From Escherichia coli (lineage in GTDB: Bacteria > Pseudomonadota > Gammaproteobacteria > Enterobacterales > Enterobacteriaceae), in NCBI RefSeq assembly GCF_041886205.1, contig NZ_CP169029.1: DNA of 64,000 nt. The stretch is one strand, 5' to 3'. The position numbers were made by a program, and so were the translations under genes. This document shows, piece after piece, positions 7,088 to 55,460 of the stretch (position 1 is the stretch's first letter; each line of letters starts with the position of its first letter). The notes under the pieces are model-generated. The model saw nothing but the letters and a program-made list of their open reading frames with translations, was not told where the DNA came from and ran no database searches.

Positions 7088-7102
7088 TTTGGGAGAGAAA
7101 AA

Positions 7103-7804: not shown

Positions 7805-7809
7805 GGTGC

Positions 7810-8457: not shown

Positions 8458-8468
8458 CCAGGAGAACC

Positions 8469-17929: not shown

Positions 17930-18124
17930 TTTCCACTCCTTGTGGTGGCGAAAAAATATCACAAACTAGAATAGCGCCTTGTATGACAATTCAGCGAGTG
18001 AATATTTTGAAAATTCAGACAATAAACTGAGCATTCTTTTTCTCTCTCCATCATGCTTATGGCAAACTACGGTTTTTGCACCATTTTCGCTGCCTCGTCG
18101 GGCAACAGAGGAAGAAAAATCCAT

Positions 18125-29014: not shown

Positions 29015-31015
29015 TCATCCTTGTTGCTGAAGCATGGGGAATAATTGTTCGCAAAGCAAAACACCGTTATTCATTGCTTCTACCCGAGCCTCGCTTTCTG
29101 TATTACGAAATTGTGCCAATACATGTGCCAGCCGATAAAAACCCATCGCGGTGAGGTCATTCGCCAGCAACTCTGCCTGACCAATAGCACTCTGTTCCTG
29201 ATAGCGCCAGCCGTTATGGAGCAGTTGAATAAGTAACGCCTGGCAGCGCATCAGCAACTGAGGAGCGGTAGACGGCACAGGCAGAACGCTGGCAGAAGGT
29301 AGCGGTGCCACAGGCGTAGTTTCTGCGTCCAGCGCCCAGGCGCGGGTTTTTGTCATCATCACCCGTGGTTCCAGTGTCAATTGCCCCTCAACAAAACTGA
29401 CAAAGCCAGAAACCAGACTCACGGGGTCCTCTGTTTGTTGTAACAGAGCTGCCATGCGTTCAACAGCAAAGGGCGAACAGGTAGAGGCTGGTAGGGATAA
29501 TGTCAGCACGTTATCTTCACCTTCGCCGCTGATTACCTGCGCATCCAGCGTTTGGCGGCTGCTATCCCAACCGAGTGAAATACACTCAGCGACCGGCAGA
29601 ATAAATAAGTTATCGACCTGATTAAGAGGCCGTATGCAGGCGGGGGGACGCTGGCGTAAATATTCCCGCAAAGCCACAATGCCCGGCTGGCGTAACGGCG
29701 CGCTCAACATTTGCCAGGCATCAGGCGACAGCGGCACAACGCTGCTTAAGCGGTTGCGGGTAGCTAACAGCAGCTCGCCATCGGCACTGCGTTTTGCTGC
29801 TTGTGAAACAATTTGCCCGCCCGCTAGTGCGCCAGCCTGAAAACTAAACAGCCGACGCGTAGCTGCCGGTGAGTTTTCCTGTTCACTTCGCGGCCAACTG
29901 CGCGAAAGGTGCAAAATACTGCCGGTGTCGGGATCGGTAAACCAGATGCGTAAACCATAATGCTCAATATCCTGCCAGCAACGCATACCTAAAGACACCA
30001 GCCGCAGATGATCAAGCTTTGCTTCTCCGGCAATGCCAGAGCCAACGACCGTGCGCCACGGCACAGGAGGAACTTCACCAATACTGTCGCGCCGGGCCAT
30101 CTCTTGTGCGCAATTTAATCGACTGTTTAATGCCGCAAGCTGACGTAAGCATTCTCCGGCATGATAGTGGCTGGCGCGGGCGTGGAAGGCATCAACGCTT
30201 GCCCGTAGCTGTCGTAGTGATTCACTCACCCATCGCCAGTTGCAGCGTTCCGCCGCCTGCTGCGCGCGACTAAAAGCGGCCTCGTAGTGAATAAGCGGCT
30301 GGCTGATGCCGCCCAGCCATAATGCCTGGCTTAATTGCTGAACATATTGACGACACGCGTTACCCTCGTCGTTGGCAAACGGATCGTTAGATGATGTGAC
30401 GTGTTCGCTGCGCATCTGCCAGATTAAATGAGTCAATTCCGCTTGCTGCGCTTTTGCCTGGACAAAGGCCTGTACTGCCAGTACGACATGTTCGCAAAGT
30501 GTGCCTTCAATACAATCACAACGGGCGAAACGAATGCTGCTACGGGAATAAAAACGCACATCGCTCATCGGTAAGCGGGCAGAGGGAATTTCGCCCGGCG
30601 TACAGAACAACTCAATGGTGATGCCTTTAGCGACCAGCGCCTGTGCGCGTTTGCGGGTAGCATCGGGAAGGGTAGCCAGTTCTTCCAGCCAGATTGCCGG
30701 ATCCCACTCTTCTTCTTTTTCCGTAGACTGAGTGGTGGCACAAAGTCGTTGATAACTTAACACCAGCATCACGCGATGACGGCACATACCGTTGGCCCCG
30801 CAACTGCACTGAGCCTCTTTCAGTGCCTGGCCGTTCGCCAGCTGGGTACGGACACCGTCACTGAAGGTGGCGATTAAAGCGTCGTTCTCATGGCTGATCT
30901 CCGGGACGTTGCCATTTTCCAGTTCCTTAAGACTGCGCTTAACAAAACCGGCATTGCTTAACGCCGTCAGGGCCTGCGGTGTCAGTTCTAATAATTCCGG
31001 ACGTAGTGAATTCAT
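29015..31015 (-). CDS. yehQ: SWIM zinc-finger protein YehQ, about 666 aa
   Basis: CSCGANGMCRHR (CxC..CxH SWIM signature) near N-terminus; start set at MNSLRPELL so that ATG overlaps yehP stop (ATGA). Confidence 0.8.
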   Translation of the reverse strand: MNSLRPELLELTPQALTALSNAGFVKRSLKELENGNVPEISHENDALIATFSDGVRTQLANGQALKEAQCSCGANGMCRHRVMLVLSYQRLCATTQSTEKEEEWDPAIWLEELATLPDATRKRAQALVAKGITIELFCTPGEIPSARLPMSDVRFYSRSSIRFARCDCIEGTLCEHVVLAVQAFVQAKAQQAELTHLIWQMRSEHVTSSNDPFANDEGNACRQYVQQLSQALWLGGISQPLIHYEAAFSRAQQAAERCNWRWVSESLRQLRASVDAFHARASHYHAGECLRQLAALNSRLNCAQEMARRDSIGEVPPVPWRTVVGSGIAGEAKLDHLRLVSLGMRCWQDIEHYGLRIWFTDPDTGSILHLSRSWPRSEQENSPAATRRLFSFQAGALAGGQIVSQAAKRSADGELLLATRNRLSSVVPLSPDAWQMLSAPLRQPGIVALREYLRQRPPACIRPLNQVDNLFILPVAECISLGWDSSRQTLDAQVISGEGEDNVLTLSLPASTCSPFAVERMAALLQQTEDPVSLVSGFVSFVEGQLTLEPRVMMTKTRAWALDAETTPVAPLPSASVLPVPSTAPQLLMRCQALLIQLLHNGWRYQEQSAIGQAELLANDLTAMGFYRLAHVLAQFRNTESEARVEAMNNGVLLCEQLFPMLQQQG

Positions 31016-32148
31016 GACTGAAGATTCTCCGCAAGCCATGATGCCAGCTCGCCCGGCGTCATGGCGGCTATTTGTGCGCCGACATTAACCAGCGCCTGGG
31101 CCGTATCGTGGTCATAGCAAGGTGTTGCGTTGCTATCGAGCGCCGCCAGTCCCAGCACTTTGATGCCGCTCTGGACACACTTTTTCACCTGATGCGTGAG
31201 TAATGATGATGAACCCCCTTCGTAAAAATCGCTCACGAGGATAATGACGCTTTTTGCTGGTTGTTCAATAAGTTGCCGACCATATTCCACGGCACTGGCG
31301 ATATTGGTTCCGCCGCCTAATTGCACTTTCATTAATAACTCTACCGGATCGGCAACGTCTGCCGTGAGATCGACGACGCTGGTGTCAAACGCCACCAGAT
31401 GGGTACGAATACCGGGTAACTGCCATAAACAGGCCGCCATCACCGCTGAGTGGATCACCGAGTCCACCATTGATCCGCTTTGATCAACCAGTAAGACCAG
31501 TTGCCATTGTTCACTGTGGCGCTTAATACGGCTGTTAAAGCGGGGGGATTCGATATACAACTTGCCGTGTTGCGGGTGCCAGTGTTGCAGGTTGGCGCGC
31601 AGAGTACTTTTGAAATCAAAGTTTCGCGCCAGTAGAATAAATGAGCGGCGACGGCGATCGCGGACACCAGAAAAAGCCTGACGAACCTCCTTTGCCAGTT
31701 GTGCCATAATTTCTTCCACAACCTGGCGCACTATCCGGCGGGCGGCAGCCAGTACTTCGGGATTCATCAGATGTTTGGTGTGCAAAACGGCGCGTAGCAG
31801 GCTTTCAGAAGGCTGCATACGTTCCAGCACGTCGAGATTCGTCACCACATCTTCAATGCCATAGCGCAGTACGGCATCGCTTTCCAGCCGCTCAATCACC
31901 TGTTGCGGAAACAGCGTGTGAATACTGTTGATCCACTCAGGAGTGGTGAGATTTGAGCCACCTAATCCACCGGAGCGTTCACCACGCTGGAGCCGTTCAG
32001 GATCGCGCCCATACAGCCACTCCAGCGCGTGGTCTATCTGCCGGGCGTTGTCATCCAGCCCACAAAGGGTCGTTTCTGCCGCTTCGCCAAGAATTAATCG
32101 CCAGCGTTGTAGCTCACGGGTGGTCAGAAGATCGTTCAGTTCAGACAT
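31012..32148 (-). CDS. yehP: von Willebrand factor A (VWA) domain protein YehP, 378 aa
   Basis: MIDAS motif DQSGSM in LVLLVDQSGSMVDS; track ORF trimmed to MSELNDLLTT; start overlaps yehM stop. Confidence 0.85.
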   Translation of the reverse strand: MSELNDLLTTRELQRWRLILGEAAETTLCGLDDNARQIDHALEWLYGRDPERLQRGERSGGLGGSNLTTPEWINSIHTLFPQQVIERLESDAVLRYGIEDVVTNLDVLERMQPSESLLRAVLHTKHLMNPEVLAAARRIVRQVVEEIMAQLAKEVRQAFSGVRDRRRRSFILLARNFDFKSTLRANLQHWHPQHGKLYIESPRFNSRIKRHSEQWQLVLLVDQSGSMVDSVIHSAVMAACLWQLPGIRTHLVAFDTSVVDLTADVADPVELLMKVQLGGGTNIASAVEYGRQLIEQPAKSVIILVSDFYEGGSSSLLTHQVKKCVQSGIKVLGLAALDSNATPCYDHDTAQALVNVGAQIAAMTPGELASWLAENLQS

Positions 32149-34420
32149 GGAAAACTCCCCAGTGTTGCAGCGATGCCAGTGCCTGCTGTTCGAGTTGTTG
32201 ATGATGTGCAATGGCTTGCGGTGGACAATGCAACGGTATTTGCAGCGCCGAAACGGGAAGTTGCGCCAGTTGATAATGCTCAAGCACCTGATGCGCCAGC
32301 GTCCCGCGTTCTCGTGGTGGTAGCCAGGCCATCGCCGCGCGTAAATCGGGCAGGGCATTGATAAAATCGGCATCACTCAGTTGATTTAAATGACTGCTGA
32401 AACCGGCGATAAATGCCGGCTGACAAGCCAGTTGATGACGGGCTAATGCCAGCAAACCGTGCAGCGCCTCGCCGGATTGGGCCGGGGATAACTGCGTCAG
32501 CATTGTCAGCGCCGCTTCGGCACTAGCGTTGGGATGTTCCAGACGCATCAGTGCGCCAAGAGTCGCGCCGCGATCCAGCGCCGGGGCATGAATCGCCTGA
32601 CTGCGGCGCTCCAGTAAGGCTACCGCCGCAGAAAGCGAAACGCCGGATAAGTTAACGCCGCTATGTAGATCGCGCAGGATATGGCAAAGCGCTTGCCAGC
32701 TATGCAGGTGAGCGTGAAACTCCTTTTCATCCGGTCTGCCGTTGGATTCACACAGCCACAGCGTGCGATCGATAGCCGCGCATAACGTCGTTTGTAATAT
32801 CTGCGCGCCTTGCATACCGCTAATTTCATCCAGCCGCCATAAGGCATATAGCACTTCCAGCGCCTGGCCCATTTCGGCAAATTGATTTTCCTGGGCGATT
32901 AATAATGTGAGTTGTTCCAGTAATTGCTCACTAAAGCTCGCCAGGCCCGCTAACGCCGCCTGGCTAAGACATGCGGTAATGCTGCCGATTCCACCCGCGT
33001 CCAGCATATCGGCTTCTAATTTATTGCGTGCGGCTTCCTGGAGTGTTGCACCAAAGCAGGCGGCCTCAATCAATGCCGCATGCTGGCTAAGCGGGCGGGT
33101 TAATTTCCAGCGTTCTTCACCGTTGCCTGCAAGTGTCAGTGTACTTCCCTGCTGGCGTAAAATCCCTGGGATCTCCAGTATTGCCAGCCGATGTAACACC
33201 TGACTTTGCGCTAGTCCATTGGGGTTAAAGCGATTTAAGGTAAGCTGCGCCGGAAGAGAGATTCCGGTACGTTCCAGTTCGCAGGTGACATCTTTTGGCA
33301 GAGGCGGTTGTGGCGTGGAGGGGGCAAGTTTACCGAATCCGTCACCCGCTAATGTGTCTATCAACGTTAGCAGAATCGGATCGGTATCGGGATGAATAAC
33401 TCCGCGATAGCTCCACGGCAACGGCGCGTTCAAGGCTTCTTTAATCAGCGAGCCTGCTATGGCATCCAGCCAGTCAGTGCGTAACGGTAGTGTATGACCG
33501 CGCAACTGTGCCAGTGCCATTGCATGCAGATGTGCGGCAGCCATATCAGCGGTAGAAGCGGGCAATTTGTGCTGGCGCAAACGGGTGAGAACCGTTTTTA
33601 GCAGTTGTTCTCCCGCCTGCTGTAAGCCCCACTGCCAGCACCAGTTTTGCCAGACCGGAGCAGGCATTCCGGAAAGGTATCCTGCCAGCACATCAAGGCG
33701 CTTTTCGCTGTATGGCGTGAGATAACAACCTGTAACGGCATCATCCTGTGAGGGCAATTCTGGCTTGTTAATTTCCTGCGGGCATTCGCGCCACATTTTT
33801 GCCAGTGCCGGAGCGTGCCAGCCACCGCAGACGACTAACACGTCGCCATTGTTTTGCAGCATCGCCCATCCAATCCAGCGGGCCATAAAGGCTTCGCGCT
33901 GACGATTGAGAGCATCTCCGGGGGAATCGCCCCGCAGTTGGGCAAAATAGTGCGCCAGCGCAGAGGGTAATGCAGTTTGCTGGCTTTCATCTTCGAATAA
34001 GTGATCCCACAGGGTGTCGCTGTTATCCATGCGGGTGGCACGCAGCAGCAAGGCCTGGCTTTCCTCTTGCGTATCAGGCGAATCGTCCTCTTCTTCACTC
34101 TGCGCCCAGCAAGGCAAATCGATGAAGTAAGTTTGTGCCTGAATACGACGTGCGGCTTGTAGCGCCTGCCACTCCGGCGAAAATTCAGCAAATGGCGTCC
34201 AGGCACCGCGCCCGGGGGCCGTACCGTCCTGATACTGGCAATAACTGTAAATAGCTACCGGAAGCTGGTGGGCTAAAAACAGTTCGTCTACCCGGTCATT
34301 AAAATCAGCCGGGCCTTCAATCAACACGTATCGTGGCCGCTGGCTTTCGATTAACGATTTCACCAGCCGGGCGCTGGCCGGGCTATGATGCCGGATGCCG
34401 ACAATTAACGGCTCGCTCAT
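32141..34420 (-). CDS. yehM: large alpha-helical protein YehM, 759 aa, function unknown
   Basis: Track ORF trimmed to MSEPLIVGIRHHSPA; Ala/Leu-rich, no motif I recognise; RBS GGAAAG upstream. Confidence 0.8.
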   Translation of the reverse strand: MSEPLIVGIRHHSPASARLVKSLIESQRPRYVLIEGPADFNDRVDELFLAHQLPVAIYSYCQYQDGTAPGRGAWTPFAEFSPEWQALQAARRIQAQTYFIDLPCWAQSEEEDDSPDTQEESQALLLRATRMDNSDTLWDHLFEDESQQTALPSALAHYFAQLRGDSPGDALNRQREAFMARWIGWAMLQNNGDVLVVCGGWHAPALAKMWRECPQEINKPELPSQDDAVTGCYLTPYSEKRLDVLAGYLSGMPAPVWQNWCWQWGLQQAGEQLLKTVLTRLRQHKLPASTADMAAAHLHAMALAQLRGHTLPLRTDWLDAIAGSLIKEALNAPLPWSYRGVIHPDTDPILLTLIDTLAGDGFGKLAPSTPQPPLPKDVTCELERTGISLPAQLTLNRFNPNGLAQSQVLHRLAILEIPGILRQQGSTLTLAGNGEERWKLTRPLSQHAALIEAACFGATLQEAARNKLEADMLDAGGIGSITACLSQAALAGLASFSEQLLEQLTLLIAQENQFAEMGQALEVLYALWRLDEISGMQGAQILQTTLCAAIDRTLWLCESNGRPDEKEFHAHLHSWQALCHILRDLHSGVNLSGVSLSAAVALLERRSQAIHAPALDRGATLGALMRLEHPNASAEAALTMLTQLSPAQSGEALHGLLALARHQLACQPAFIAGFSSHLNQLSDADFINALPDLRAAMAWLPPRERGTLAHQVLEHYQLAQLPVSALQIPLHCPPQAIAHHQQLEQQALASLQHWGVFHV

Positions 34421-34430
34421 GCATCTTTCC

Positions 34431-35519
34431 TCACGGCAGGCGGTGGCGGGCTTGATAATAAGCCTGCCAGTGAGCTTCTTTATGTGTGGCGACTCGCTGT
34501 TCGAAGTAACGGCGCAGACGAGCGCGATCTTCTTCGTTATCTTTGACGATGGTTCCGGCAATACAGTCCACCAGATCGGCTGGCTCACCTGCGCGATTCG
34601 CTAAAAACCAGGCGCGGACGCCCACAGCGTGGGCCACGTTCACGGCTTCAGCGGTGGACATAATCGCTGTTAGTGTATCCATTGACGTTTTCTTTTCGCC
34701 GTTGGCACGCAGATCGCGGAAGGTGCGGACCAGTAACTCCAGTACCGCGTCAGGCACTTTATGCGGAATACCGCTATGGGCCAGCAAACGCGCCGAAGCA
34801 CTGGCGACCAGTTCCAGCTCCTGAGCGAAATCCATAATCGGAAAGACAGTTTCAAAATCGAAGCGACGCTTTAGCGCAGCACTCATCTCATTGACGCCGC
34901 GATCGCGCGTATTGGCAGTGGCAATAATATTAAAGCCTTCCCGCGCATAGAGTTGACTGGCTTCACCAGTGAGTTCCGGCACCGTCATCACCCTGTCAGA
35001 AAGCATACCTAACAGACAGTCTTGCACTTCCAGCGGTGTACGCGTTATCTCTTCAAAACGGACGATTTTGCCGTCGCGCATTCCCTGGTAAAGCGGGGCA
35101 GGGACCAGCGCTTCCGTTGATGGACCATGATTGATAAGCAGAGCGTAGTTCCAGCCGTACTTGATTTGATCTTCAGTGGTAAATGCGCCGCCCTGGATGG
35201 TTAACCCGGCATCGCCGCTAATAGCGGTTGCCAGTAATTCAGACAGGAGAGATTTTGCGGTGCCCGGTTCCCCCACCAACATCAAACCGCGCCCGGTGGC
35301 AAGAGTGACTAACATACGTTCGACAGCAGAGGGACTAATCACGACTTTACGGCTAATATTTTGCGCGCTATCGCCAAGGATAAAAGCACGTGCCGCAGGC
35401 AAACTTAACTGCCAACCGGGCGGGCAAGGTGCGTTATCATTTTGTTTTAATTTTGCCAGTTCATCGGCGTATAACACAGCGGCAGGCGGACGCTGCAGAT
35501 GATTATTCTGCGGTGACAT
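34431..35519 (-). CDS. yehL: MoxR-like AAA+ ATPase YehL, 362 aa
   Basis: Walker A GEPGTAKS in LMLVGEPGTAKSLLSELLA; start set at MSPQNNHL. Confidence 0.88.
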   Translation of the reverse strand: MSPQNNHLQRPPAAVLYADELAKLKQNDNAPCPPGWQLSLPAARAFILGDSAQNISRKVVISPSAVERMLVTLATGRGLMLVGEPGTAKSLLSELLATAISGDAGLTIQGGAFTTEDQIKYGWNYALLINHGPSTEALVPAPLYQGMRDGKIVRFEEITRTPLEVQDCLLGMLSDRVMTVPELTGEASQLYAREGFNIIATANTRDRGVNEMSAALKRRFDFETVFPIMDFAQELELVASASARLLAHSGIPHKVPDAVLELLVRTFRDLRANGEKKTSMDTLTAIMSTAEAVNVAHAVGVRAWFLANRAGEPADLVDCIAGTIVKDNEEDRARLRRYFEQRVATHKEAHWQAYYQARHRLP

Positions 35520-35626
35520 ATATTCATCCCTGAAATGTATTAATGAAATAAACGATATTTTACGCGCAATAAATGTTTGGCGCATTAGTTGTTTGAGCGA
35601 AAAATATCTGGAAAGCAGATCACAGT

Positions 35627-35656
35627 AAATAAAAAAACCTGCTGGTGAGGCAGGTT
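35627..35656 (-). terminator. intrinsic terminator downstream of yehK, upstream of yehL
   Basis: Reverse strand reads aacctgc-ctcacca-gcaggtt followed by tttttttatt. Confidence 0.55.
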
Positions 35657-35825
35657 CTTTTATTTACTATTTTCAGGCCTAACACCACAGCCTGTGCAAC
35701 ATCGTGTTCCAACGAACGAATTATAACCACGGCTGGACCCCGTTGCAATTAAGATAATGAGATTTATAATCCAGACCGTTGGGACGTTGCGCCGGATCGG
35801 ACCAATTTGAATTATTTAGAGTATA

Positions 35826-36143
35826 TTATTCTATTTCTTGGTTGAATATATTCTGTAGTTCACGATTAAAAATTGCTATTACAGTTTCAGGTGATTCACC
35901 TCGTAATTTCCGCTCATCAATACACTCATCTCTTATATAAATCAACGCATCATTTATTAGCGGGTCAGCATCTTCTCGATCACGTTGATGAAATGTTGGA
36001 TGTAGCCGGAATCGCTCCAGTCGATAGACGGAACCTGTAAATAATTCAGAGCATTTATGGATCTCAAGTCTGAAGGAAAACGGATCTTCAGGTACAGGGA
36101 CCTCATAATCGTAAATAGCAACCAGCTCTTTTTGCACGATCAT
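35826..36143 (-). CDS. yehK: small uncharacterised protein YehK, 105 aa
   Basis: 105-aa ORF 59 bp downstream of yehI; synteny with K-12 yehK. Confidence 0.75.
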   Translation of the reverse strand: MIVQKELVAIYDYEVPVPEDPFSFRLEIHKCSELFTGSVYRLERFRLHPTFHQRDREDADPLINDALIYIRDECIDERKLRGESPETVIAIFNRELQNIFNQEIE

Positions 36144-36202
36144 CGCTTTCCCGTTGGTAAGTCGTGTTGAAAACGGGCAGTCGCATCACTGCCCGTTGTG
36201 TT

Positions 36203-39200
36203 TTAATGGAAAATGACGTCGGGTGCGCTTAACGCCTCACTCAAATCAAACACATCAAGTGCGGCAAAAGTGACGGATTTATTGTCACGGTACACCCGAA
36301 GAGAACGGAAGCTCATCAGCGCTTTGCTATCAGCACTGTAGTAGTTAAAACCGGGTGAAAACTTAAGGACCAGCCGGTACTCACCTAAGTCATAGACAAA
36401 TGCGTCCTCATAGCCTGACTCCCAGCCTTTGTATCGCATTCCCATAAGCTGCCCAACGGTAGCGGATTTACCTTCCCAGCGAGTCAGGCTGTTACTGGTT
36501 GACTCGTCAGGTGTGAGCAGCACCGTGCGGCGCGACAACTGGCGAAAAGGCGGCATAATTTCGTAATCGGCAAAAAGCTGTGCAAATTCACTGCGCATTT
36601 CTGCTGTCATTTCTAACGGGTGGGCAATGCCAATCAGAGCGTCCGCAGGCAGGTCAATGGGCTCATCTTGTGCATTGCAGAATTCCCCCTCTGCGGCCAC
36701 ACGAAAGGTGTTGAGTAAACGACGTGGTTCATTTGCCGGATAAACCCCCCATATTAATCGCTGGGTAACCAGGCGGGTAAAGGGATGATTAACAAAAAGA
36801 GAATGAAAATCTGCCAGCGACCAGCGTCGGGTGGTGCGTAGGGCAGTTTCAAGACGCGGGAGCAGGTTTTTGCTCACCTGAGTGGCATCTTTTTTTAGCC
36901 CTTTTAGTCGGGCCAGTGCCTCGGGCGCTTTCAGTTGATCGTCATCGGCGCGCAACCGGGGAACACTTTTCTGGCGAACGTTTTGTTGATCGTAGATAAC
37001 CGGGTTGAGGTTTTCATCGAAGCGAACGGTAAACTGCCGGGGACCAAAATCAAAAATCAACGCCTGCGGATCATCAAGACCCAGTGTTGGGACTAATCTG
37101 TCCGCTAACTCTTCCTGGCTTAGCCCGCGATTTTCTGCGACCACCTGAAGAAATTCCGCTGCGTTTTCACGTAATGAAGAGGATTTCGCCCGTTGTGATA
37201 CATGATGCAGCTGTATCAGCGCCATATCATTATTCATCAGGGTGAGTATATTCAGACCACTGACAGCACGGGCAGATTTGCCTTCTTGTGGCCAAGCGAG
37301 GATCTGTGTTGTTAGATCCCGTGCCGTGCTTTCGTCACCAAAGAGACTTAACGCCAGAAATGCCCAGTTGTCTTTTGCGGGGGCACCAGCTTGTTGCCAT
37401 GCGGTGAAGAGATCCCAGGCAAAAGCTGCCAGCGTTTGCGGCTGGCAGAACGTTTTCAGTTGTTCCAGCCCGCTATAAAAACGTCCCCCTTGGGTAAAGC
37501 GCAGCATTTCGCCAATAATTTCCAGAGCGTCATCGGTAACAGGTTGATTATTAGTGATAAGGCGCGGCCTGGACCACATTTGCGGATGCCAGAAATCAGG
37601 GGCTTTTGGAATGCGTGCCGGGTAAATCTCTATTGGACTCTGTTTAAGTAATTGTTCCAGGGCAGGCCATACATCAGCGCGATCCCAGCGGTTTGCCACG
37701 GTTTGTAGTAATACGCCATGTCCCTGTTCGTAAAGTAAACGCAGGGCAAGTAATGCAGCTTCGCTATTATCGCTGGATTTAGTGAAGACAAGAGGGATAA
37801 GTGCAGTAGCCGTATGTTCCGGCCATTGTAAAATCCACTGGCGAGCCAGATCACGCTGCGCCGCGAAACGTCGCCAGACGCGGGCAACAGGCAGCGCCAG
37901 TTCTGTTGCGCCGAAATGAATCAGCAGCGGAAATATCTCTTGTGGATGTCGGGCAAAGGCGGTGTTTAATCCAGGCAAAGCATCGGTAGCCAGCACACTT
38001 AACAGATATTCCACCCCAGTGTAATGAAAATCAGCATCGACAATTTGTTGCCAGCACGATACCGCCATTTCGCGCGGCATCTGCGCGATAAGGTACAGAT
38101 TCCAAATCCCCCAACGCTTTTCATTACCATAGTAAAATTCGTGCTGAAAAGTTCGCCACCCTTCCATCAACGCAATGCAATCTTGTGCCAGTAATGCTTT
38201 GGTGGCTTCTTCACGATACTGTTTAGATTTGGCCTGATGCGCGTGATAAGTACGCAATAGTCCTATTGATGTGTATTCTTGCAGTTGCTGAGCATCAAAG
38301 GCATCCAACTGTCCATTAAGAAGATGCTTATTAAATTCCAGGCTATGAACGTCAAAACCTAATTCCCGCAAGAAGGTATCCGCCCCTCTCTTAGCAATAC
38401 GTTCGTCAAAAGACATGGCGCTAAAATGGTCAATTGCAGTTTGCTGTTCCGGCGTCCAGTGTTTATTCGGCGACCTGTACGTTTGCGGTGCAAGCGTAAG
38501 ATCAGGCAGCGAAAAGTGAGGTATGGAAGTCTTTTTCTTCCTCCCACGCCATGGTGGTGAAACGAGGATTTCAGGCATTTGGCTGTTATCGGTACTATCA
38601 ATAACCGGTTTGGGCGGTGCCAATAAATAACTATTCAGTACTGCCCGGGCTTGAGTACTTAACCACTGCATCACCTCTTCTGCCAGTTGTGGCTGCGATG
38701 CCATCAGCGTTTGTAACAGCGTACGCCAGTATTCATCTCGAGCTTTTTGCTGGGCAGGCAGCTTTTTGTCTTCGATGATTGGATAACCAGGGCGGGCTGG
38801 TGGTTCTTTTAACGCCAACAGTTCTGCCAGTGCCGCGAGCGTCGCGTGGGGGAAGTTTTTACTGTATTTAGCCACACGTTGCAGGCTGGGTTTGTTTTTA
38901 TCAGCCACCAGTAGCAAGGTGCGGATGACCTGCGGATGGTTAATTTGTACCAACAGACTGCCGCAATCTTCTTTATGGGCATACATCGCGAGGCGCGGAA
39001 TGGCTGCCAGTCCTTGTTCGCGCAAAAGGGCGGCGCAGGCCGCGTAGCCGAAGTGGTTTTCATGCGACATGTAGCTGGCTTCGCGATCGCTAAATATATC
39101 CTGACTCCAGTAGTGATCGAGTTTCCTCACCGCTGTGGGGTCATTAGCAACAACTTTTAGCCACTCCTTAGAATGATAATGAGTCCGTGGGCATTCAAGG

Positions 39201-39850
39201 CCTATCAACTCATTGGCGATTTCTGGTTTTTCCGGGAGGATCAGCGCAATAAAAGGGCGGCGAACTTTGGTTATTCCTGGCAGTGCGGCAATGAGTTTGT
39301 CGGCGCAACGCTGCCAGCAGCTTTCCTCTGCCAGAGAGAGATGCTTACGCAGTCGGAGATCGAATTCGTTATAGGTTTCTGATCGATAACCATAGCCATA
39401 GTCCTCGTTCTGATACTGCAATGTCACTACCAGAGGATCACTCTCATAACACCGCGCAATAAACTGGCGTGCAATCACCACCTCAGTCGCATATTCCAGT
39501 CCCTCTTGTTGGACGATTTCGTCGAGCAACTGTTGGCTGTCATTTTGCGCGATACAGGCTAGTGCCGCCATTGTGCGGGCCGGGACTGAGGGTTTGTGTT
39601 CGCCGATCAAGTTGATGGCCTGCGTAATGGCGGACTGCCACTCCAGTGAAAAATTTTCATAACGCCAGACAATGTTTTTTTTCTTCTCAGCTTTTTGTAG
39701 CAATTCATCACCCAGTGTCTGAATGATGCTTTCAGTGATAACAGGCACCGGTTCGCCCGGCCATTTGCGATGACTGAGTGGTGTTTTGCCTTTTTTATAT
39801 TTCAGTTCCAGTTGGGCGTTATCCGCCAGCCACGGTAATTCCTTGTCCAT
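36203..39850 (-). CDS. yehI: giant DUF4132-family protein YehI (MolR paralogue lacking the WGR head), 1215 aa
   Basis: 1215-aa ORF; C-terminal two-thirds alignable by eye to both molR-like genes (e.g. FDFGPRQFTVRFDENLNPV, FAQLFADYEIMPPFRQL). Confidence 0.85.
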   Translation of the reverse strand: MDKELPWLADNAQLELKYKKGKTPLSHRKWPGEPVPVITESIIQTLGDELLQKAEKKKNIVWRYENFSLEWQSAITQAINLIGEHKPSVPARTMAALACIAQNDSQQLLDEIVQQEGLEYATEVVIARQFIARCYESDPLVVTLQYQNEDYGYGYRSETYNEFDLRLRKHLSLAEESCWQRCADKLIAALPGITKVRRPFIALILPEKPEIANELIGLECPRTHYHSKEWLKVVANDPTAVRKLDHYWSQDIFSDREASYMSHENHFGYAACAALLREQGLAAIPRLAMYAHKEDCGSLLVQINHPQVIRTLLLVADKNKPSLQRVAKYSKNFPHATLAALAELLALKEPPARPGYPIIEDKKLPAQQKARDEYWRTLLQTLMASQPQLAEEVMQWLSTQARAVLNSYLLAPPKPVIDSTDNSQMPEILVSPPWRGRKKKTSIPHFSLPDLTLAPQTYRSPNKHWTPEQQTAIDHFSAMSFDERIAKRGADTFLRELGFDVHSLEFNKHLLNGQLDAFDAQQLQEYTSIGLLRTYHAHQAKSKQYREEATKALLAQDCIALMEGWRTFQHEFYYGNEKRWGIWNLYLIAQMPREMAVSCWQQIVDADFHYTGVEYLLSVLATDALPGLNTAFARHPQEIFPLLIHFGATELALPVARVWRRFAAQRDLARQWILQWPEHTATALIPLVFTKSSDNSEAALLALRLLYEQGHGVLLQTVANRWDRADVWPALEQLLKQSPIEIYPARIPKAPDFWHPQMWSRPRLITNNQPVTDDALEIIGEMLRFTQGGRFYSGLEQLKTFCQPQTLAAFAWDLFTAWQQAGAPAKDNWAFLALSLFGDESTARDLTTQILAWPQEGKSARAVSGLNILTLMNNDMALIQLHHVSQRAKSSSLRENAAEFLQVVAENRGLSQEELADRLVPTLGLDDPQALIFDFGPRQFTVRFDENLNPVIYDQQNVRQKSVPRLRADDDQLKAPEALARLKGLKKDATQVSKNLLPRLETALRTTRRWSLADFHSLFVNHPFTRLVTQRLIWGVYPANEPRRLLNTFRVAAEGEFCNAQDEPIDLPADALIGIAHPLEMTAEMRSEFAQLFADYEIMPPFRQLSRRTVLLTPDESTSNSLTRWEGKSATVGQLMGMRYKGWESGYEDAFVYDLGEYRLVLKFSPGFNYYSADSKALMSFRSLRVYRDNKSVTFAALDVFDLSEALSAPDVIFH

Positions 39851-39859: not shown

Positions 39860-42800
39860 TTATTCAAACAGGGCTTCAATATCGTTAATTAGCTCGCTGG
39901 CGGTGATGGCATCGAGTACGGAGAACTGCGCTTCCTGTGTTGAATTACTCCCCCAGCCATAGCTTTCCGCTTTGCCTTCCCATAACCACAGCTTGCTTAA
40001 GAGCTGCTCAGCGCTAAGTTCGGCTGGTGACATACCCACCGCAAAACCTTCGTCGATTTCCATGATTAACGACCAGCGACCCAAAGGTTTGATCATCCAT
40101 CCGATCCAGCCTCCATCCTGTGGTTCGCCCTTTATCCAGCCTTTATTCGCCAGCCCCATGACCCGACCACTCGGGCATTTTCTGCCTGCCCAGCGGGTCA
40201 GTTCACTGGCATTGCGCTCGGCTTCTGTCAGGGCGTAGCTGTTACGGTCGAGCTGGCGGAACGGTGGTAGCAGTTCGTAGTCGGCAAAAAGCTGACCAAA
40301 GGCGGCAGCATCCGTTGGTGATATTTCCAGAACGTGAGGAGTGCCGATAGAGATATCGCCTTCCGGCAGGGTGAAAAGATCATCGTCAGCGGTGCTGTAG
40401 CTGTTATCTTCTGCTACGCGAAAGCAAGCCAGTAGCTGGTTTTCGGCGCTATAAACGCCCCAAATCAGACGGCGGGTTAAGTGACGAACCAGCGGATGCT
40501 CAACCAGGAAGAGCTGGAAGTTTTCCAGCGACCAGCGGCGGCGCAGGCACATGGCGGATTCCAGCCTTGCTACCTGCTGGGCGGCGACGGTACGCGCATC
40601 TTTTTTCAGCAGTTTGTAGCGGTTAACAGCATCGTTCGCCTGTGATTCATCATCGCTTTTGTTTGGTTTGGGCAGGTCTTTCAGACGGCTGCCGGAAGCG
40701 TCACGCACAAACGGTTTTAAGGTTTCATCAAAGCTGACGGTGAACTGGCGTGGGCCGAAATCCAGCAGCAACGAACCGTTATCATCCAGACCGAGATCTG
40801 GTGCTAACCGATCTTCAAGCTCCGCCACCGTGAGTTCGCGGCTCTCGGCAATATCGGCAATTTTCTCTTTTGCCCGCTCCTGTAAAGCTTTGAATTTCAG
40901 TTTCTGAGCAATGCCGTTAAGCTGCATCAGAGCAATATCACTACCGATAGCGGCGAGGATATCAAGCCCGACGGTGGCGCGTTTATGCTGGGATTCGCCA
41001 GGCCAGGCGCGGATTAATGGCGTCAGTTTGCGGGCGGTGTCATCGTTACCGAGAACGCCTAACGCAGTGAACGCCCAACTCTCTTTCGACGGCGCGCCAG
41101 CGGTCTGCCAGGCGGTAAACAGATCCCAGGCAAATTCAGCCAGTGAGTCGGCGGTACAGGCGTCTTTCACCTGTAATATTCCCGGATACAGAACCTCTTC
41201 CTGAGGGAAGCGGAGCATTTCACCGAGGTGGAGGAGGGCTCTATCTGGCAGTGATTGGGCGTTTGCTTTTAATACCGGGCGCGTCCAGAGCGATGGTTGA
41301 TAAAAGGCCGGAAGAGTGGGGATTTTTGTCGGGTGATTATCTAAGGGATCGAGCGCAAGCAGAGCGTTCACCGCATCGGTTACTTCCGGCTGGTTATAAC
41401 GTCGGGCGATTTCTTGCAGTAATGGCTGATGACCGTTTTCGGTAAGCATACGCAAGGCAGCGCGGGCGTTATCCTGTGCTTCACCGGCTTTGCCGAGCGC
41501 CGCAGGCAGCAGGCCGGTAAGGGCATGTTCCGGGTATTTCAACAGCCAGCTACGGGCGTTTTCGCGTAGCGTTTTGAGTTTGTTGAAGGCACGGGCAATC
41601 AGTGGCGCTAATTCGATAGCCGCAAAATATTGTGCTACAGGCAGCGCTTCTTGCGGATAGCGAGATGCTGAGTGGATAAAACCTGTTAAACCAGCAAGTC
41701 GAAGATGCAACATTACTTGTGTTGCACCTGTATGTGGTTCTTTACTAAGGATGTTCCACATCTCGATAGCTTTATTAATGGGTAAAACATGGAGTGAAGA
41801 AAGATTCCATTCGCCCTGATAAGGGGAGTTATAGGACTTAAAAGCATCAATCAGCGCTGAATAATCTTCACGCTGCAAGGCATCCAGTGCTATTTCTGGA
41901 ACATCAATATAGCCTCTATGTTTGTTCCAATCCCAGCGGTTGAATCCCAGGGAGGTCAGAAAAGCTTTTTCTCCCTCAGCTTGCTGATGAGGTTGCCAGT
42001 TATGCTGCACTTGCAGTGTTTTGCTTTTTGTTTCATTTATTGTACAGAAGGATTCTAGGGATAATGGTGCTAAATCCAGCACCGAAATCGTCGATTTTTT
42101 CTTTTTAGCCAGCCAGGGCGGTGAGACTAATACGGCAGGCAGCATATCAGCGTTCGCATAAACTGAAGGTTGTGTCAGTTGTTGCTGGCATGACTTAAGA
42201 ACGGTAACTGCCGGGGCAGATAGCCAGGAGATTACCCGTTCTGCTAATGTTGGTTGTGAGATAAGCATTGTCATTAGCATCATGCGCCAGCGCTTTTCAT
42301 CTTTTTTTGCCAGAAGTTCTGCTAATGCCGCCAGCGCTGCATGTGGAAAGCGAACGAAAGCCTTTGTCATGCGATCGTGGCAACGCTTTCCCTGCTCGCT
42401 TGCATGGATAAGTAGTGTAAGTGCCTGCGGGTGGTTGATATGCATCAACACTTCACCACATGTGTCACCAGCAGCGTAAGGAGCAAAACGGGCCAGCGCA
42501 GCGACACCTTGCTCCTTGAGTATCGTTGCGCACCAGATTTTACCTCCGTAATAATCATCAAATACCTGCCCAGGCTGTCCTGGATAGTATTTTCCCAGTT
42601 CTGCCAATACCTGCTCGTCAGCGGCCGTCAGTTTTAGCCATTCCAGCGCATATAACCCTTTTTGTCCGCAAAGATGTCTGGCAATCTCATGAGCTATTTC
42701 TGGTTTTTCCGGCAACAATAGTGCAACCAGCGGCTGGTGCCAGGTGGGCATGTTTCCGAGAGCGGCAATCAGTTTGTCGGCGCAGCGCTGCCATACATCG

Positions 42801-43618
42801 TCATTTGCAAGTGAGAGATGCTTACGCAGGCGCATTTCAACCGAAGCGAAGCGTAACAGATAGCCAGGCTGCCTGTTATCCGGGGTAACCGTAATGAGAT
42901 GGGCATCATAATCCCAGTCGAAGCGGATGAATTGCAATGCAATGACAACCTCAGTGGCATATTCCAGACCACCTTCCTGGACAATTTGATCCATTAACTC
43001 TTCATGATCGTTACGATTGAAGCCTTGTTCCAGCGCAACCAGTACCGCCAGTACCATCGGAGGTAGCGTGGTGCTAATTGGCGAGTCGATAAGGCCTACT
43101 GCTTGTGTAATTGCCTGCTGCCAGTCGAGTGAACAGGTACTGTAATCGAAGGTGAGCACCTTTTTAAAACGCCGGTGAGTATTCGCGGCAACGGTGCGTA
43201 GCAGGGTTAATTCATCCTCCTGCTGCACCGGATCGCCAGGCCAGCGTCGATGACTGAGTGTGGTTGGCGCAATCTCTGTCGGTAACATGATTTGGGCACC
43301 GTCTGCCAGCCAGGGGAGGAGGTCACCAGCAAATGCTGGTTTGTCTTGTGGCAAAGGGGTAATTTCAGGGCATTCAATAACCTGGCCGGGTGCAAATGTC
43401 GCTGTCATCACGGATACTTCTTCTACGTAGCCCTTTTTTGTTTTCTCCGCAATCAGCTTCAGCTCCGCTTTTTCCGCCGCCGCAGCATCTGCAAAGCTTT
43501 TTACCTGACTTTGCCCGTTACTGCCGACTTTACCCCAGTTAATATGCAGCTCGTTTCCCTGCTGCTCCACCGCCCAGAATTTATGTGATTTTTCGTCCTG
43601 ATAAATATAGGTTTTCAT
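39860..43618 (-). CDS. molR: intact MolR/YehH-family protein, N-terminal WGR domain plus DUF4132, 1252 aa
   Basis: N-terminus MKTYIYQDEKSHKFWAVEQQGNELHINWGKVGSNGQSQVKSF is a WGR-domain signature; uninterrupted 1252-aa frame; 9-bp gap to yehI. Confidence 0.8.
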   Translation of the reverse strand: MKTYIYQDEKSHKFWAVEQQGNELHINWGKVGSNGQSQVKSFADAAAAEKAELKLIAEKTKKGYVEEVSVMTATFAPGQVIECPEITPLPQDKPAFAGDLLPWLADGAQIMLPTEIAPTTLSHRRWPGDPVQQEDELTLLRTVAANTHRRFKKVLTFDYSTCSLDWQQAITQAVGLIDSPISTTLPPMVLAVLVALEQGFNRNDHEELMDQIVQEGGLEYATEVVIALQFIRFDWDYDAHLITVTPDNRQPGYLLRFASVEMRLRKHLSLANDDVWQRCADKLIAALGNMPTWHQPLVALLLPEKPEIAHEIARHLCGQKGLYALEWLKLTAADEQVLAELGKYYPGQPGQVFDDYYGGKIWCATILKEQGVAALARFAPYAAGDTCGEVLMHINHPQALTLLIHASEQGKRCHDRMTKAFVRFPHAALAALAELLAKKDEKRWRMMLMTMLISQPTLAERVISWLSAPAVTVLKSCQQQLTQPSVYANADMLPAVLVSPPWLAKKKKSTISVLDLAPLSLESFCTINETKSKTLQVQHNWQPHQQAEGEKAFLTSLGFNRWDWNKHRGYIDVPEIALDALQREDYSALIDAFKSYNSPYQGEWNLSSLHVLPINKAIEMWNILSKEPHTGATQVMLHLRLAGLTGFIHSASRYPQEALPVAQYFAAIELAPLIARAFNKLKTLRENARSWLLKYPEHALTGLLPAALGKAGEAQDNARAALRMLTENGHQPLLQEIARRYNQPEVTDAVNALLALDPLDNHPTKIPTLPAFYQPSLWTRPVLKANAQSLPDRALLHLGEMLRFPQEEVLYPGILQVKDACTADSLAEFAWDLFTAWQTAGAPSKESWAFTALGVLGNDDTARKLTPLIRAWPGESQHKRATVGLDILAAIGSDIALMQLNGIAQKLKFKALQERAKEKIADIAESRELTVAELEDRLAPDLGLDDNGSLLLDFGPRQFTVSFDETLKPFVRDASGSRLKDLPKPNKSDDESQANDAVNRYKLLKKDARTVAAQQVARLESAMCLRRRWSLENFQLFLVEHPLVRHLTRRLIWGVYSAENQLLACFRVAEDNSYSTADDDLFTLPEGDISIGTPHVLEISPTDAAAFGQLFADYELLPPFRQLDRNSYALTEAERNASELTRWAGRKCPSGRVMGLANKGWIKGEPQDGGWIGWMIKPLGRWSLIMEIDEGFAVGMSPAELSAEQLLSKLWLWEGKAESYGWGSNSTQEAQFSVLDAITASELINDIEALFE

Positions 43619-43630: not shown

Positions 43631-46600
43631 TTAATCAAACAGTGATTCAATATCGTTAATCAGCTCGCTGGCGGTGATGTCGTCGAGCACGGAGAAGGGA
43701 TAAACCGATTTGCGCGGCGTCAGTTTGCACAACTGAATGTGCTCAATTTTTTGGCTATCGCTGATTTCGGTGACGGGCAATCCAACGCAGAAGCCTGGTG
43801 TCACACTCAGTTCGACGTAGCCATCATCCACAGATTTATAAAATGAGTAATAGCCGCCACCATCCAGCACATCGCCCCGTTGCCAGCCTTTATTCATCAG
43901 CCCGGCGACGCGCCCACTCGCTGCCTGGCGACCAGCCCAGCGCTGCAAATCGCTGCTGCTTTTTTCTGTCTCAGAGAGCTGAGACCAGGGGCGATCAAGT
44001 TGACTGAATGGTGGCAATAGTTCGTAGTCAGAGAACAGTTGTGCAAATTCAGCAGCCTGCGGGGCCGGGATTTCCAGTACATGCGGGATACCGATACTGC
44101 CCTGCGCAAGGGTTAACGGGTTATCCTGACCGTCGCTAAAACTGCCATCCTCCGCCACGCGGAAACAGGAAATAAGCTGATTATCAGCGTCATAAATGCC
44201 CCACATCAGACGTTGGGTGATATGACGAACCAGGGGATGCTCAACCAGAAACAGGCGGAACTGTTCTGCAGTCCAGCGGCGACGCTGACACATGGCGGCT
44301 TCCAGACGCGAAATCTGTTGTGCAGCTACCGTGCGGACATCTTTTTTCAACAACTTGTAGCGATTTACCGCTTCCTCAGCCAGCGTTTCATCATCGCTTT
44401 TGTTCGGTTTGGGCAGATCTTTCAGACGGTTGCCGGAAGCTTCGCGCACAAACGGTTTTAAGGATTCATCAAAGCTGACGGTGAACAGGCGTGGGCCGAA
44501 ATCCAGCAGTAGTGAGCCGTTATCATCCAGACCGAGATCGGGGGCTAACCGGTCTTCCATCTCTGCGACGGTGAGCTGGCGGCTTTCGGCAATCTGGGCG
44601 ATTTTAGTTCTAGCCTGATCCTGCAAGGCTTTAAATTTTAGCTTTTGCGCAATACCGTTAAGTTGCATCAGGGCGATATCGCTGCCGATAGCAGCAAGAA
44701 TATCCAGCCCGACAGTGGCGCGTTTATGCTGAGATTCCCCCGGCCATGCGCGGATGAGCGGGGTGAGTTTGCGGGCGGTGTCATCGTTACCCAGAATCCC
44801 CAGTGCGGTAAATGCCCAGTTATCTTTGGCTGACCCGCTTGCAATCTCCCAGCTCAAGAAGAGATCCCAGGCGAAATCGGCAAGAGACTGCGGGGTACAG
44901 GCCTCGATTACCTGTGTTATCCCCGGGTAAAGGGTGGCTTCGCGGGGAAAAGAGAGCATGGTGCACAGTTGCAGGATAGCTGAATCCGGAAGTGCCTTGC
45001 CGTTACTGCGCAGAAGCGGGCGGTGCCATACTTCAGGGGTACACCAGGCGGGGAGTTTAGCGATTTTCTGCGGAAAATTATCGAGGGGGTCGCTGTTAAG
45101 AACATCTAACAAACCCGTAAGCACTTCTGCCTGATTATAGCGGTGGGCAATTTCTTCCATTAACGGCTGATGCCCATGATGAGCCAGATAGCGAATTGCC
45201 GTAGCGGCGTCTTCACGCTCACTACCTGCTTTTCCCAGCACGGAAGGCAGCAGGCCCGTAATGGCATGTTCCGGATAGGTTAACAACCAACGTTCAGCAA
45301 CATCACGTACAGATTTAAGCTGACGAAAGGCGCGAGCCATTAAGGGGGCTACTTCGGTTGCGCCAAAACGTGCCGCTAAAGGAATGGCTTCCTGAGGTAC
45401 GACTAAGGCGCGACGCAGCAAGCCGGGCAATGTCGGAAGACCGTAATATTCCACTACTTCACATGCGTTAATCAGATGTAGGTGAGTCAGTGCGTTCCAT
45501 ATTTTCAGTGCTTTATTTTCTGATAACTGAAGCAATACCGACACATTGACAAGGATATGACTTGCCCACCGAGGTTTATCCCAGATCTTTAATAAAGCTT
45601 CGTAATTGTCCTGCTCGAAAAAATCAATGGCAGCCTGAGGTATACCCCAACCAAGCTCTTCGCAATGGAAGTTCAACAAATCCAGGATATCTTTCGCTGA
45701 TGGGGATGGCGCAGATGGCTCAGTCAGATTTTTTGTTGCGGGGATAGATTCAGGGGGGGAAGAGGTAATACCCGGAGAGTGAGGTTGATACCAGCAATCT
45801 TTTTCTTTTTTTCCAACCATGAAGGGGCGATCAATATACTGGGTAATTCATTCTTATGAGCAATTTTTTCGATGGACATAAGCTGAGGAAAATAACTAAA
45901 TAAAATTTGTTGCTGTTTTTCGTCAAGCCAGGGAAGCGTTTTATGTAAGGCTTGCGCATTACCCAAGATGATGCGCTGCAGTAAACGATAATAGTGAGAG
46001 TTATTTGTGTAATTTAAGGCTTTTGTTAATGCATAAAGTGCAGCTTCAGGATGTAAATTTGTTGCGTGTTCCACTTCACTGATACATTCTTCTTTTATTA
46101 ATATATTAATGGCGTCAGGATGATTAACTTGTGTAATTAGATTTTTAACTGAATAACTATCCTTTATCCATGGCTGAAGAAGTGGAAGAGCTTTTACCCC
46201 TCGTTCACGCAGTAATGTCGCAGTGCATTTTTCCGCCGTCTGCCAGTCGTTATAGCGCTTAAGTTGGTTAAGATTCATCAATTCATTGAGTGCCTGCGGA
46301 TCTGTGGCAACGATATCCAACCATTCCATTTCTGGGTAATTAGCACATTGCACTAAGTCAAAGACAATTTGATTAGCAATTTCAGGTTGTTCAGGCAAAA
46401 GAAAACCTATTAAAGGGCGTTTACGTGGAGACAGGGAAGGCAACGCTTGAGTAAGCTTTTTCATGCACCGTTGCCATGTTTTTTCATCAATACGCGAGAG
46501 ATGATTTCGCAAGTGAAAATCTACAGTGCTGAAGCCGAATTCAAAACGTTGTTCTGATATTGTGTTACTTAGAATAAGCGTTGGTACGCAATTTTTTGTA

Positions 46601-47370: not shown

Positions 47371-47470
47371 TCTGCATCCCTGTAATTTTATCCAGTTGAA
47401 TGCAGATGCTACCAGTATTTATGCGGGTTAGAGAGAGACAAAATCGCAAGAAAACAACTTTAGGAATTTA

Positions 47471-54956: not shown

Positions 54957-55460
54957 TTATTGATAGTGTTTTATGTTCAGATAATGCCCGATAACTTTGT
55001 CATGCAGCTCCACCGATTTTGAGAACGACAGTGACTTCCTGCCCAGCCTTGCCAGATGCTGCCTCAGATTCAGGTTATGCCGCTCAATGCGCTGCGTATA
55101 TCGCTTGCTGATAACGTGCAGTTCTCCCTTCAGGCGTGATTCATAAAGCGGCCAGCCATCCGTCATCCATACCACGACCTCAAAGGCCGACAGCAGGCCC
55201 AGAAGACGCTCCAGCGTCGCCATAGTGCGTTCACCGAATACGTGCGCAACAACCGTCTTCCGGAGCCTGTCATACGCGTAAAACAGCCAGCGCTGGCGCG
55301 ATTTAGCCCCGACATAGCCCCACTGTTCGTCCATTTCCGCGCAGACGATGACGTCACTGCCCGGCTGTATGCGCGAGGTTACCGACTGCGGCCTGAGTTT
55401 TTTAAGTGACGTAAAATCGTGTTGAGGCCAACGCCCATAATGCGGGCAGTTGCCCGGCAT
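54957..55460 (-). CDS. insB: IS1 transposase InsB, 167 aa
   Basis: 167-aa ORF with IS1 InsB sequence ([24 protein letters not shown]). Confidence 0.88.

Follow-up and report, generated by a model that had tools for sequence, protein, structure and literature searches.

The stretch of Escherichia coli DNA analysed here, a window of 64,000 nucleotides from contig NZ_CP169029.1 (assembly GCF_041886205.1), contains four closely packed reverse-strand genes, yehL, yehM, yehP and yehQ, downstream of giant genes with WGR and DUF4132 domains. We found that these five gene types travel together across phyla, and that the system belongs with the MoxR-VWA systems. Such pairs are widespread, and only a handful have a known client. 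The subfamily that YehL represents has reportedly been nothing but a name since 2006. We tentatively read yehLMPQ and the WGR-DUF4132 genes as a five-component, ATP-driven machine for protein remodelling or processing, which would be built around the MoxR-VWA pair, deliver a hydrolase output and use nucleic-acid-linked adaptors; we place this reading somewhat below an even chance.

Results

The cassette is conserved across phyla

One genome per species (~100,000 genomes) was scanned for relatives of YehM. The scan yielded at least 574 confirmed matches, and 80 loci were kept for analysis, from Enterobacterales, Burkholderiales, Xanthomonadales, Myxococcota/Deltaproteobacteria and many Actinobacteria. 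Their open reading frames (ORFs) were searched with the E. coli proteins. The gene order L-M-P-Q was found in 73 of the 80 loci, with exceptions mostly at contig ends. A DUF4132 gene was adjacent in 70 loci and lay upstream on the same strand in 67; five of the ten loci without an adjacent DUF4132 gene were cut by contig starts. Copy number of DUF4132 ranged from one to four per locus, and two to four tandem copies occurred in about 30 loci. Gene tables for Serratia, Variovorax, Chitinivorax and two metagenomic lineages gave the same cassette, with 1–4-nt overlaps or ~10-nt gaps between genes, in unrelated housekeeping surroundings whose neighbours differed by lineage. Clustering of 2256 flanking ORFs revealed no sixth gene common across lineages.

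A preliminary description of this DNA had proposed a unit of four genes and raised the question of its conservation across Proteobacteria. The yehLMPQ order is indeed kept there, and also in Actinobacteria, but the conserved unit has five components. Since the synteny with DUF4132 genes holds in 70 of 80 loci across phyla, the link to the upstream WGR/DUF4132 giants is a conserved part of the system.

The components differed in their degree of conservation. Median identity to the E. coli proteins was 64–75% for YehL (64% between E. coli and actinomycetes), 57–71% for YehP, 38–48% for YehM, 32–44% for the DUF4132 proteins and 27–37% for YehQ. This gradient (L and P above M, and M above DUF4132 and Q), together with a constant C-terminus and a variable middle region among the DUF4132 paralogues, points to a constant engine with exchangeable adaptors.

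Within the species, the locus is chromosomal. Positions 29015–35600 of the window match strain wlxctx60 with 100% identity. Of 5426 complete E. coli genomes, 5366 (98.9%) contain the yehLMPQ region, nearly always as a single copy at one fixed position. The genes yehL (34431–35519, 362 amino acids), yehM (32141–34420, 759 amino acids), yehP (31012–32148, 378 amino acids) and yehQ (29015–31015, 666 amino acids) all lie on the reverse strand, and the RefSeq gene boundaries coincide exactly with those of the preliminary description. Direct reading of the sequence reproduced the claimed junctions, and with them the tight packing, to the base: the TGA stop of yehL is followed by GGAAAGATGC (10 nt) and then by the yehM ATG; yehM and yehP overlap by 8 nt in ATGTCTGA, which holds the stop of the one and the ATG of the other; and yehP and yehQ share the 4-nt overlap ATGA. 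Translation likewise recovered the three motifs named at the outset, GEPGTAKS (35250–35273), DQSGSM (31468–31485) and the SWIM motif (30776–30808). Junctions and motifs are not products of chance, because tight or overlapping junctions recur in other taxa and conservation of the motif residues reaches at least 90% across 73–83 homologues. GC content of the locus is 54–55.5% versus 51% for the whole window. Compared with K-12, the ratio of non-synonymous to synonymous substitution rates (dN/dS) was 0.046 for yehL, 0.058 for yehP, 0.11 for yehM and 0.12 for yehQ (dS 0.12–0.16), which indicates that the four genes are maintained by purifying selection.

YehL and YehP as a MoxR-VWA pair

Profile searches supported the assignments to AAA_5/MoxR, VWA (as VWA_CoxE), WGR and DUF4132 that had been made without any database, and supported SWIM weakly (1.3e-3), with invariant ligands. 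YehL matched Pfam AAA_5 (2e-34) and contains the four elements of a MoxR-type ATPase: Walker A (GEPGTAKS, reverse strand), Walker B (VRFEEI, residues 153–158), sensor-1 (ATANTRD, residues 200–206) and the Arg-finger region (AALKRRF, residues 214–220). All were at least 90% conserved among 83 sequences. Judged from its sequence, YehL is a competent-looking ATPase that carries every AAA+ catalytic motif. A VWA partner is encoded nearby, as expected for MoxR proteins, with yehP two genes downstream of yehL in the 73 loci that keep the order. The solved structures closest to YehL by sequence were the AAA modules of midasin (1.7e-9), followed by a bacterial MoxR (4.6e-4); a match to bpMoxR was weak (E = 0.0019) and was seen again in one of the other lineages. 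YehL gives its name to one of seven MoxR subfamilies (PMC3893208), and in later literature on this subfamily we found only the name repeated and no function.

YehP matched Pfam VWA_CoxE (1.2e-70). Its metal ion-dependent adhesion site (MIDAS) is intact, as in CoxE-family VWA proteins (DxSxS...T...D), with DQSGSM, GGGT at residue 278 and SDFYEGG at residue 306; the three elements were at least 90% conserved among 79 sequences. yehP carries a demonstrated +1 ribosomal frameshift site, and the same paper cites a yehP knockout with a swarming phenotype (PMC2790909). The published frameshift cassette, GTGGAGTATGGTCGGC, is present at 31275–31290 (reverse strand) with one change, GAG to GAA, which makes for a weaker version of the internal Shine-Dalgarno-like GGAG invoked for frameshifting (PMC2790909).

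A putative hydrolase domain in YehM

YehM matched DUF5682 over the whole protein (2.1e-98) and no other Pfam family. In its AlphaFold model (predicted local distance difference test score 88.3), an alpha/beta domain of residues 1 to ~245 precedes helical repeats. The C-terminal two-thirds (32141–33685, reverse strand) is predicted to be an alpha-helical repeat scaffold of the HEAT/TPR-like type, with helical-repeat matches, and here the earlier label of a giant helical protein holds. It does not hold for the N-terminal third (residues 1–245, 33686–34420, reverse strand), which is modelled as a TIKI/TraB/ChaN/erythromycin-esterase-like alpha/beta fold with conserved His and Glu residues; the model shows the parallel beta-sheet arrangement of ChaN, Bcr135/136, HopBA1, PMT and RRSP.

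A candidate active site is formed by G8-I-R-H11 (34388–34399), E35 (34316–34318) and G199-G-W-H202 (33815–33826), all on the reverse strand. G8xxH11, E35 and G199xxH202 were invariant in 21–22 diverse sequences, as were E46, E83, E176, R10 and R175. In the model, G8xxH11 follows strand 1, E35 ends strand 2 and G199xxH202 follows a later strand. A parallel motif pattern, GSIH...VEAD...GALH, likewise at strand ends, occurs in YbaP of E. coli (TraB family), as judged by comparing sequence and strand position only. The TIKI superfamily groups ChaN, HopBA1, PMT, the Ere-family protein Bcr135 and RRSP, and its defining features are a 2His/2Glu site and a basic residue that is conserved (PMC6254334). 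That is, the modelled N-terminal domain of YehM looks like an unrecognised, TIKI-type putative hydrolase. Its setting is unlike that of other members, since it is fused to a 500-residue helical scaffold and encoded within a MoxR-VWA operon.

Natural YehM-YehP fusions of 1120–1185 amino acids fell into seven separate clusters at 50% identity, with isolates of Kitasatospora and Yinghuangia among their sources. Sequence searches of the PDB with YehM, YehP and YehQ profiles returned nothing useful.

YehQ and the DUF4132 proteins

In YehQ the match to Pfam SWIM (1.3e-3) covers CSCGANGMCRH, in which the ligands C70, C72, C78 and H80 were invariant among 26 sequences and conform to the CxCxnCxH pattern. 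The motif is followed by helical bundles, beta-barrels at residues ~331–428 and ~470–561, which are possibly OB-like, and a C-terminal helical bundle. A second SWIM-like motif at residues 160–183 (CDCIEGTLCEH, 30467–30538, reverse strand; Pfam E = 0.21) belongs to the family consensus CDCxxGxxCEH, but its Cys/His ligands are not invariant, and we rejected it as a zinc finger.

Three DUF4132 paralogues lie upstream on the same strand. Paralogue 1 (43631–47370, reverse strand) is of the molR type, with WGR and DUF4132 domains. Paralogue 2 (39860–43618, reverse strand, 1252 amino acids) combines WGR (residues 7–67; Pfam 1e-17, and 8.8e-18 against PDB 2ra8), a divergent middle and DUF4132 (residues 976–1161, Pfam 1.3e-50), and so belongs to the WGR-DUF4132 family. 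Paralogue 3, yehI (36203–39850, reverse strand, 1215 amino acids), was assigned by RefSeq annotation and paralogue alignment and has no WGR. Identity between paralogues 1 and 2 was 61% in WGR, 19–38% over the middle 600 residues and 54–89% in the C-terminal third that includes DUF4132. Among the loci, 54 had DUF4132 genes in which WGR was detected.

In the window, paralogue 1 is split into two overlapping ORFs (45724–47370 and 43631–45820) by a 1-nt deletion at 45752. The deletion reads CC to C beside a G7 run, and the counterpart in strain wlxctx60 is an intact coding sequence of 1246 amino acids; the frameshift may be genuine or may reflect an error in sequencing. Apart from this deletion and a 766-bp insertion, the window and wlxctx60 differed by nine substitutions over a 45.9-kb overlap. 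The insertion (54942–55707) ends in GGTAATGACTCCAACTTATTGATAGTG, presumably the terminal repeat of IS1.

Regulation and the intergenic region

A LexA (SOS) box-like sequence, CTGGATAAAATTACAG, lies at 47380–47395 on the reverse strand, in the molR promoter region, and 9 nt separate its end from the start codon of DUF4132 paralogue 1. molR figures in a list of E. coli genes whose SOS box is known (PMC6590174), and its promoter is activated by BglJ-RcsB (PMC3950696). In Deinococcus, the DdrO DNA-damage regulon includes WGR and DUF4132 genes. Mutants in hns/stpA de-repress yehL and yehM, and H-NS is bound at the adjacent intergenic region (PMC3686432). This reported region near yehL/yehM coincides with yehK and the AT-rich spacer at 35520–35825, both of 38% GC.

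Hairpins followed by T-runs were found after yehI and after yehK. The former, a terminator-like, GC-rich hairpin of 10 bp at 36172–36197, directly follows the yehI stop and is flanked by T/A runs on both sides (bidirectional). By its sequence, it suggests that in E. coli the DUF4132 genes are transcribed separately from yehK/yehLMPQ.

yehK itself (35826–36143, reverse strand, 105 amino acids) is an orphan ORF between the DUF4132 genes and yehL. We considered it as a part of the system and rejected it: no homologue was found in the 80 foreign loci, and Pfam, NCBIfam and PADLOC gave no match, so that yehK is probably outside the conserved system. In the Variovorax locus, a gene of 139 amino acids (8417–8836) occupies the position of yehK between the DUF4132 and AAA_5 genes. 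It had no Pfam match, and similarity to YehK was not detected.

The spacer also encodes the OrzO-P antitoxin small RNA (35631–35706, reverse strand; Rfam RF02083, 99.9 bits versus a gathering score of 60). It lies on the strand of yehL, 112 nt upstream of that gene, and ends in a strong hairpin and T-run. No toxin ORF of the ZorO/ZorP type was found beside it in the window or in K-12, so that this antitoxin RNA of a type I toxin-antitoxin locus is an orphan. At the same site an O157:H7 genome has a spacer of 1240 nt that holds two Orz copies and a pair of toxin ORFs, MDTLTQKLTVLIAVLELLVALLRLIDLLK and a variant of it that differs by one residue.

State of the locus in E. coli lineages

Laboratory and reference strains carry damaged copies of the locus. 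In K-12 MG1655, yehQ (17101–18945 of the retrieved stretch) has a GAG to TAG amber mutation at codon 615 that removes the last 52 residues, and a WGR fragment, yehF, and the pseudogene yehH (4475–8270 of the retrieved stretch) replace the two intact WGR-DUF4132 genes upstream of yehI; the K-12 copy is crippled. In one O157:H7 genome (3889–5289 of the retrieved stretch), yehM has an internal stop and is annotated as a pseudogene. Sublineage L1a of ST131 carries a resistance transposon within the DUF4132 region. The lesions in K-12 and O157:H7 offer a reason why knockout and overexpression screens stayed silent.

Viral databases also contain yeh genes. Six PHROG families (30700, 33984, 31592, 29006, 36295 and 20839) gave full-length, very high-scoring matches, and a yeh gene copy in IMG/VR (UViG_2562617057_000009) was 97% identical to E. 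coli. We discarded a phage origin, as these matches are near-identical to E. coli and sit in singleton-like families; most likely they are chromosomal DNA in mis-called prophages. Among 2.9 million viral contigs, the cassette was not found save for one E. coli-like fragment. Such copies could mislead automated annotation into calling these genes phage genes.

Discussion

How such a machine might work can be sketched from the parts. A hexameric ring of YehL would be the motor. CbbO, NorD, ViaA and the MIDAS domain of midasin grip their targets through MIDAS; by analogy, YehP may dock on the YehL ring and grip an acidic residue of its target. YehM would bind YehP and supply the hydrolytic output, as a peptidase or an esterase, with its helical arm as scaffold. 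YehQ and the paralogous WGR-DUF4132 proteins would be interchangeable adaptors or sensors that couple the engine to a cue associated with nucleic acid. In PARPs, WGR is the domain that binds DNA breaks, and in E. coli the first DUF4132 gene, molR, is under LexA control; the most likely cue would therefore be damaged or abnormal DNA.

Several observations speak against this five-component reading. In about a quarter of the loci, the DUF4132 genes have no detectable WGR. Scans of the 80 loci for LexA-type boxes (E. coli, actinobacterial and Xanthomonas types) upstream of the cassette gave, outside E. coli, only within-gene matches that were chance or codon-conserved; no promoter box was found there, and the scans do not support SOS control as a general feature. 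In E. coli itself, the SOS-controlled DUF4132 genes are set apart from yehLMPQ by hairpins, yehK and the small RNA gene, so that co-transcription of all five parts is not implied. The TIKI assignment of YehM rests on the predicted structure and the motif pattern. YehM shares no sequence-profile signal with TraB/YbaP, in contrast to what might be hoped of a relative within the TIKI/TraB/GumN/ChaN/erythromycin-esterase superfamily (which includes RRSP, HopBA1 and PMT C1-C2): hhalign of the YehM N-terminal profile against a YbaP/TraB profile, itself shallow, gave a probability of 0.5%, and the Pfam search found no TraB domain in YehM. Foldseek found no match of YehM in the PDB at E ≤ 1e-3. It did return chain 7w5z_E of Tetrahymena complex IV (probability 0.99), which resembles the TraB-family chain 8bqs_DQ in length. 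Moreover, some members of the TIKI superfamily, such as ChaN and PMT, are not enzymes. The clusters of YehM-YehP fusions hold one or two members each, and a single-base indel at the 4–8-nt overlap could yield such fusions.

A possible but doubtful alternative is a dedicated chaperone for assembly or cofactor insertion, like CoxD-CoxE, NorQ-NorD, CbbQ-CbbO or the class I chelatases. YehL and YehP would then bring a metalloprotein to maturity or insert a metal or tetrapyrrole, YehM would use its ChaN-like domain to bind the ligand or metal and not as a hydrolase, and the DUF4132 proteins would be clients or large 'H/N-type' subunits. The known MoxR/VWA pairs, CoxD-CoxE, NorQ-NorD, CbbQ-CbbO and RavA-ViaA, share with yehLMPQ an AAA_5 ATPase encoded beside a VWA protein with intact MIDAS, but the characterised systems differ in having no YehM (TIKI-fold plus helical), no SWIM protein YehQ and no WGR-DUF4132 partners. 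With no linked client in evidence (neither coxMSL nor coxF), yehLMPQ is not a CoxDE system, and in no lineage was a client enzyme gene found beside the cassette. The class I chelatases (BchI/D/H, CobS/T/N) likewise combine an AAA+ motor, a VWA/MIDAS subunit and a large substrate-handling subunit. In NCBIfam only generic AAA/chelatase matches below threshold were obtained, and weak NCBIfam and PHROG matches pointed to cobaltochelatase and porphyrin-biosynthesis ATPases. However, no homologue of CobN/BchH was found, and YehM and DUF4132 were unrelated to the large subunits by all searches; the system is not a chelatase. Homology to Cox, Nor or Rubisco components was not found either. In such a chaperone one would not expect SOS control, a conserved site of the 2His/Glu type, tandem paralogues that diversify, or domains such as WGR and SWIM.

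We regard as unlikely that the locus provides anti-phage or anti-plasmid immunity as a nucleoside triphosphate-dependent 'conflict system'. The diversifying WGR-DUF4132 proteins and YehQ would sense nucleic acid or proteins of the invader, the MoxR-VWA pair would set the threshold, and YehM would be a toxic protease effector that acts by abortive infection. Conflict systems have been predicted in which peptidase effectors are appended to a MoxR-vWA core (PMC7159879), and the vWA-MoxR ternary systems of Kaur et al. 2020 share a MoxR-vWA core of CoxD/CoxE ancestry plus extra sensor and effector proteins. They differ in their third components (VMAP, iSTAND, beta-propeller), none of which was found in the five yeh/DUF4132 proteins, and the survey makes no mention of SWIM, WGR or YehL (PMC7159879). 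With these signature components absent and its architecture not covered there, yehLMPQ is not a ternary conflict system of that type. Tandem expansion of DUF4132 with a hypervariable middle region would fit immunity, as would a patchy spread that suggests horizontal transfer (YehM of E. coli is 48% identical to that of Serratia and 46% to those of Betaproteobacteria), silencing by H-NS/StpA, repeated inactivation (molR and the yehQ amber in K-12, the yehM stop in O157, the transposon in ST131) and the type I toxin-antitoxin locus that adjoins yehL. But none of seven proteins significantly matched the 5027 models of PADLOC-DB v2; six had no match and YehP matched only DpdF (E = 0.0068), so that the locus is not assignable to any known defence system. 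The neighbours are housekeeping genes and not defence islands, the near-absence from viral contigs is a further point against immunity, and a fixed position in 98.9% of E. coli genomes under strong purifying selection would be unusual for defence cargo.

More specific, and quite improbable in our view, is a split midasin-like AAA+/MIDAS extraction machine with a TIKI-family protease, recruited to DNA lesions or DNA-bound obstacles by the WGR, SWIM and OB-like adaptors. Midasin (Rea1/MDN1), an AAA+ protein of ribosome assembly in eukaryotes, provides the AAA modules nearest to YehL among solved structures, and the order AAA_5, helical, MIDAS in the yeh genes mirrors its ring, helical linker and MIDAS, a likeness that is one of analogy beyond the AAA domain. 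Midasin differs in fusing six AAA modules in one polypeptide and has no TIKI, SWIM or WGR parts. Given a single AAA module in YehL and separate genes, with occasional M-P fusions, yehLMPQ is not a midasin. If true, the extraction machine would be an unrecognised SOS-linked pathway that clears DNA-protein crosslinks or stalled nucleoprotein complexes, a functional analogue, in E. coli and hundreds of other species, of eukaryotic p97/Cdc48 with SPRTN/Wss1, overlooked because of the crippled copy in K-12.

That yehLMPQ is a cryptic, horizontally acquired remnant without function in E. coli, its tight packing inherited from the donor, is very improbable: H-NS/StpA silencing, a GC content above that of the window, the lesions in K-12, O157, ST131 and the first DUF4132 copy of the window, and the lack of a clear phenotype in the literature would agree with it, but it is contradicted by the dN/dS values of all four genes, by intact catalytic motifs throughout and by the conservation of YehL between E. 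coli and actinomycetes.

Our literature searches agree with the initial statement that the four-gene unit has no experimentally defined role: we found no functional study of yehLMPQ, in gene-name searches swamped by author names (Yeh, Yehl), no mention of DUF5682 and no functional study of DUF4132. For the four genes, the experimental record in the literature searched is limited to the repression by H-NS/StpA, the +1 frameshift site of yehP and the swarming phenotype of the yehP knockout. To call the system undescribed is thus correct as regards function, but the subfamily name of YehL, H-NS/StpA repression, the yehP frameshift and the SOS box of molR are on record.

The cassette is present in at least 574 of ~100,000 species genomes and is under strong purifying selection. 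The TIKI-fold putative hydrolase that structure prediction places in the cassette had not been remarked on before. The adaptor genes encode DNA-associated domains and, in E. coli, have an SOS box. A cluster of 'y-genes' is turned into a set of testable hypotheses on catalytic site, DNA damage, phage and complex, and the remedy for the silent screens is to use an intact allele rather than that of K-12. Once its function is defined, one of the larger gaps that remain in the E. coli core genome would be closed, and MoxR-VWA engines would gain a TIKI hydrolase as a new type of output.

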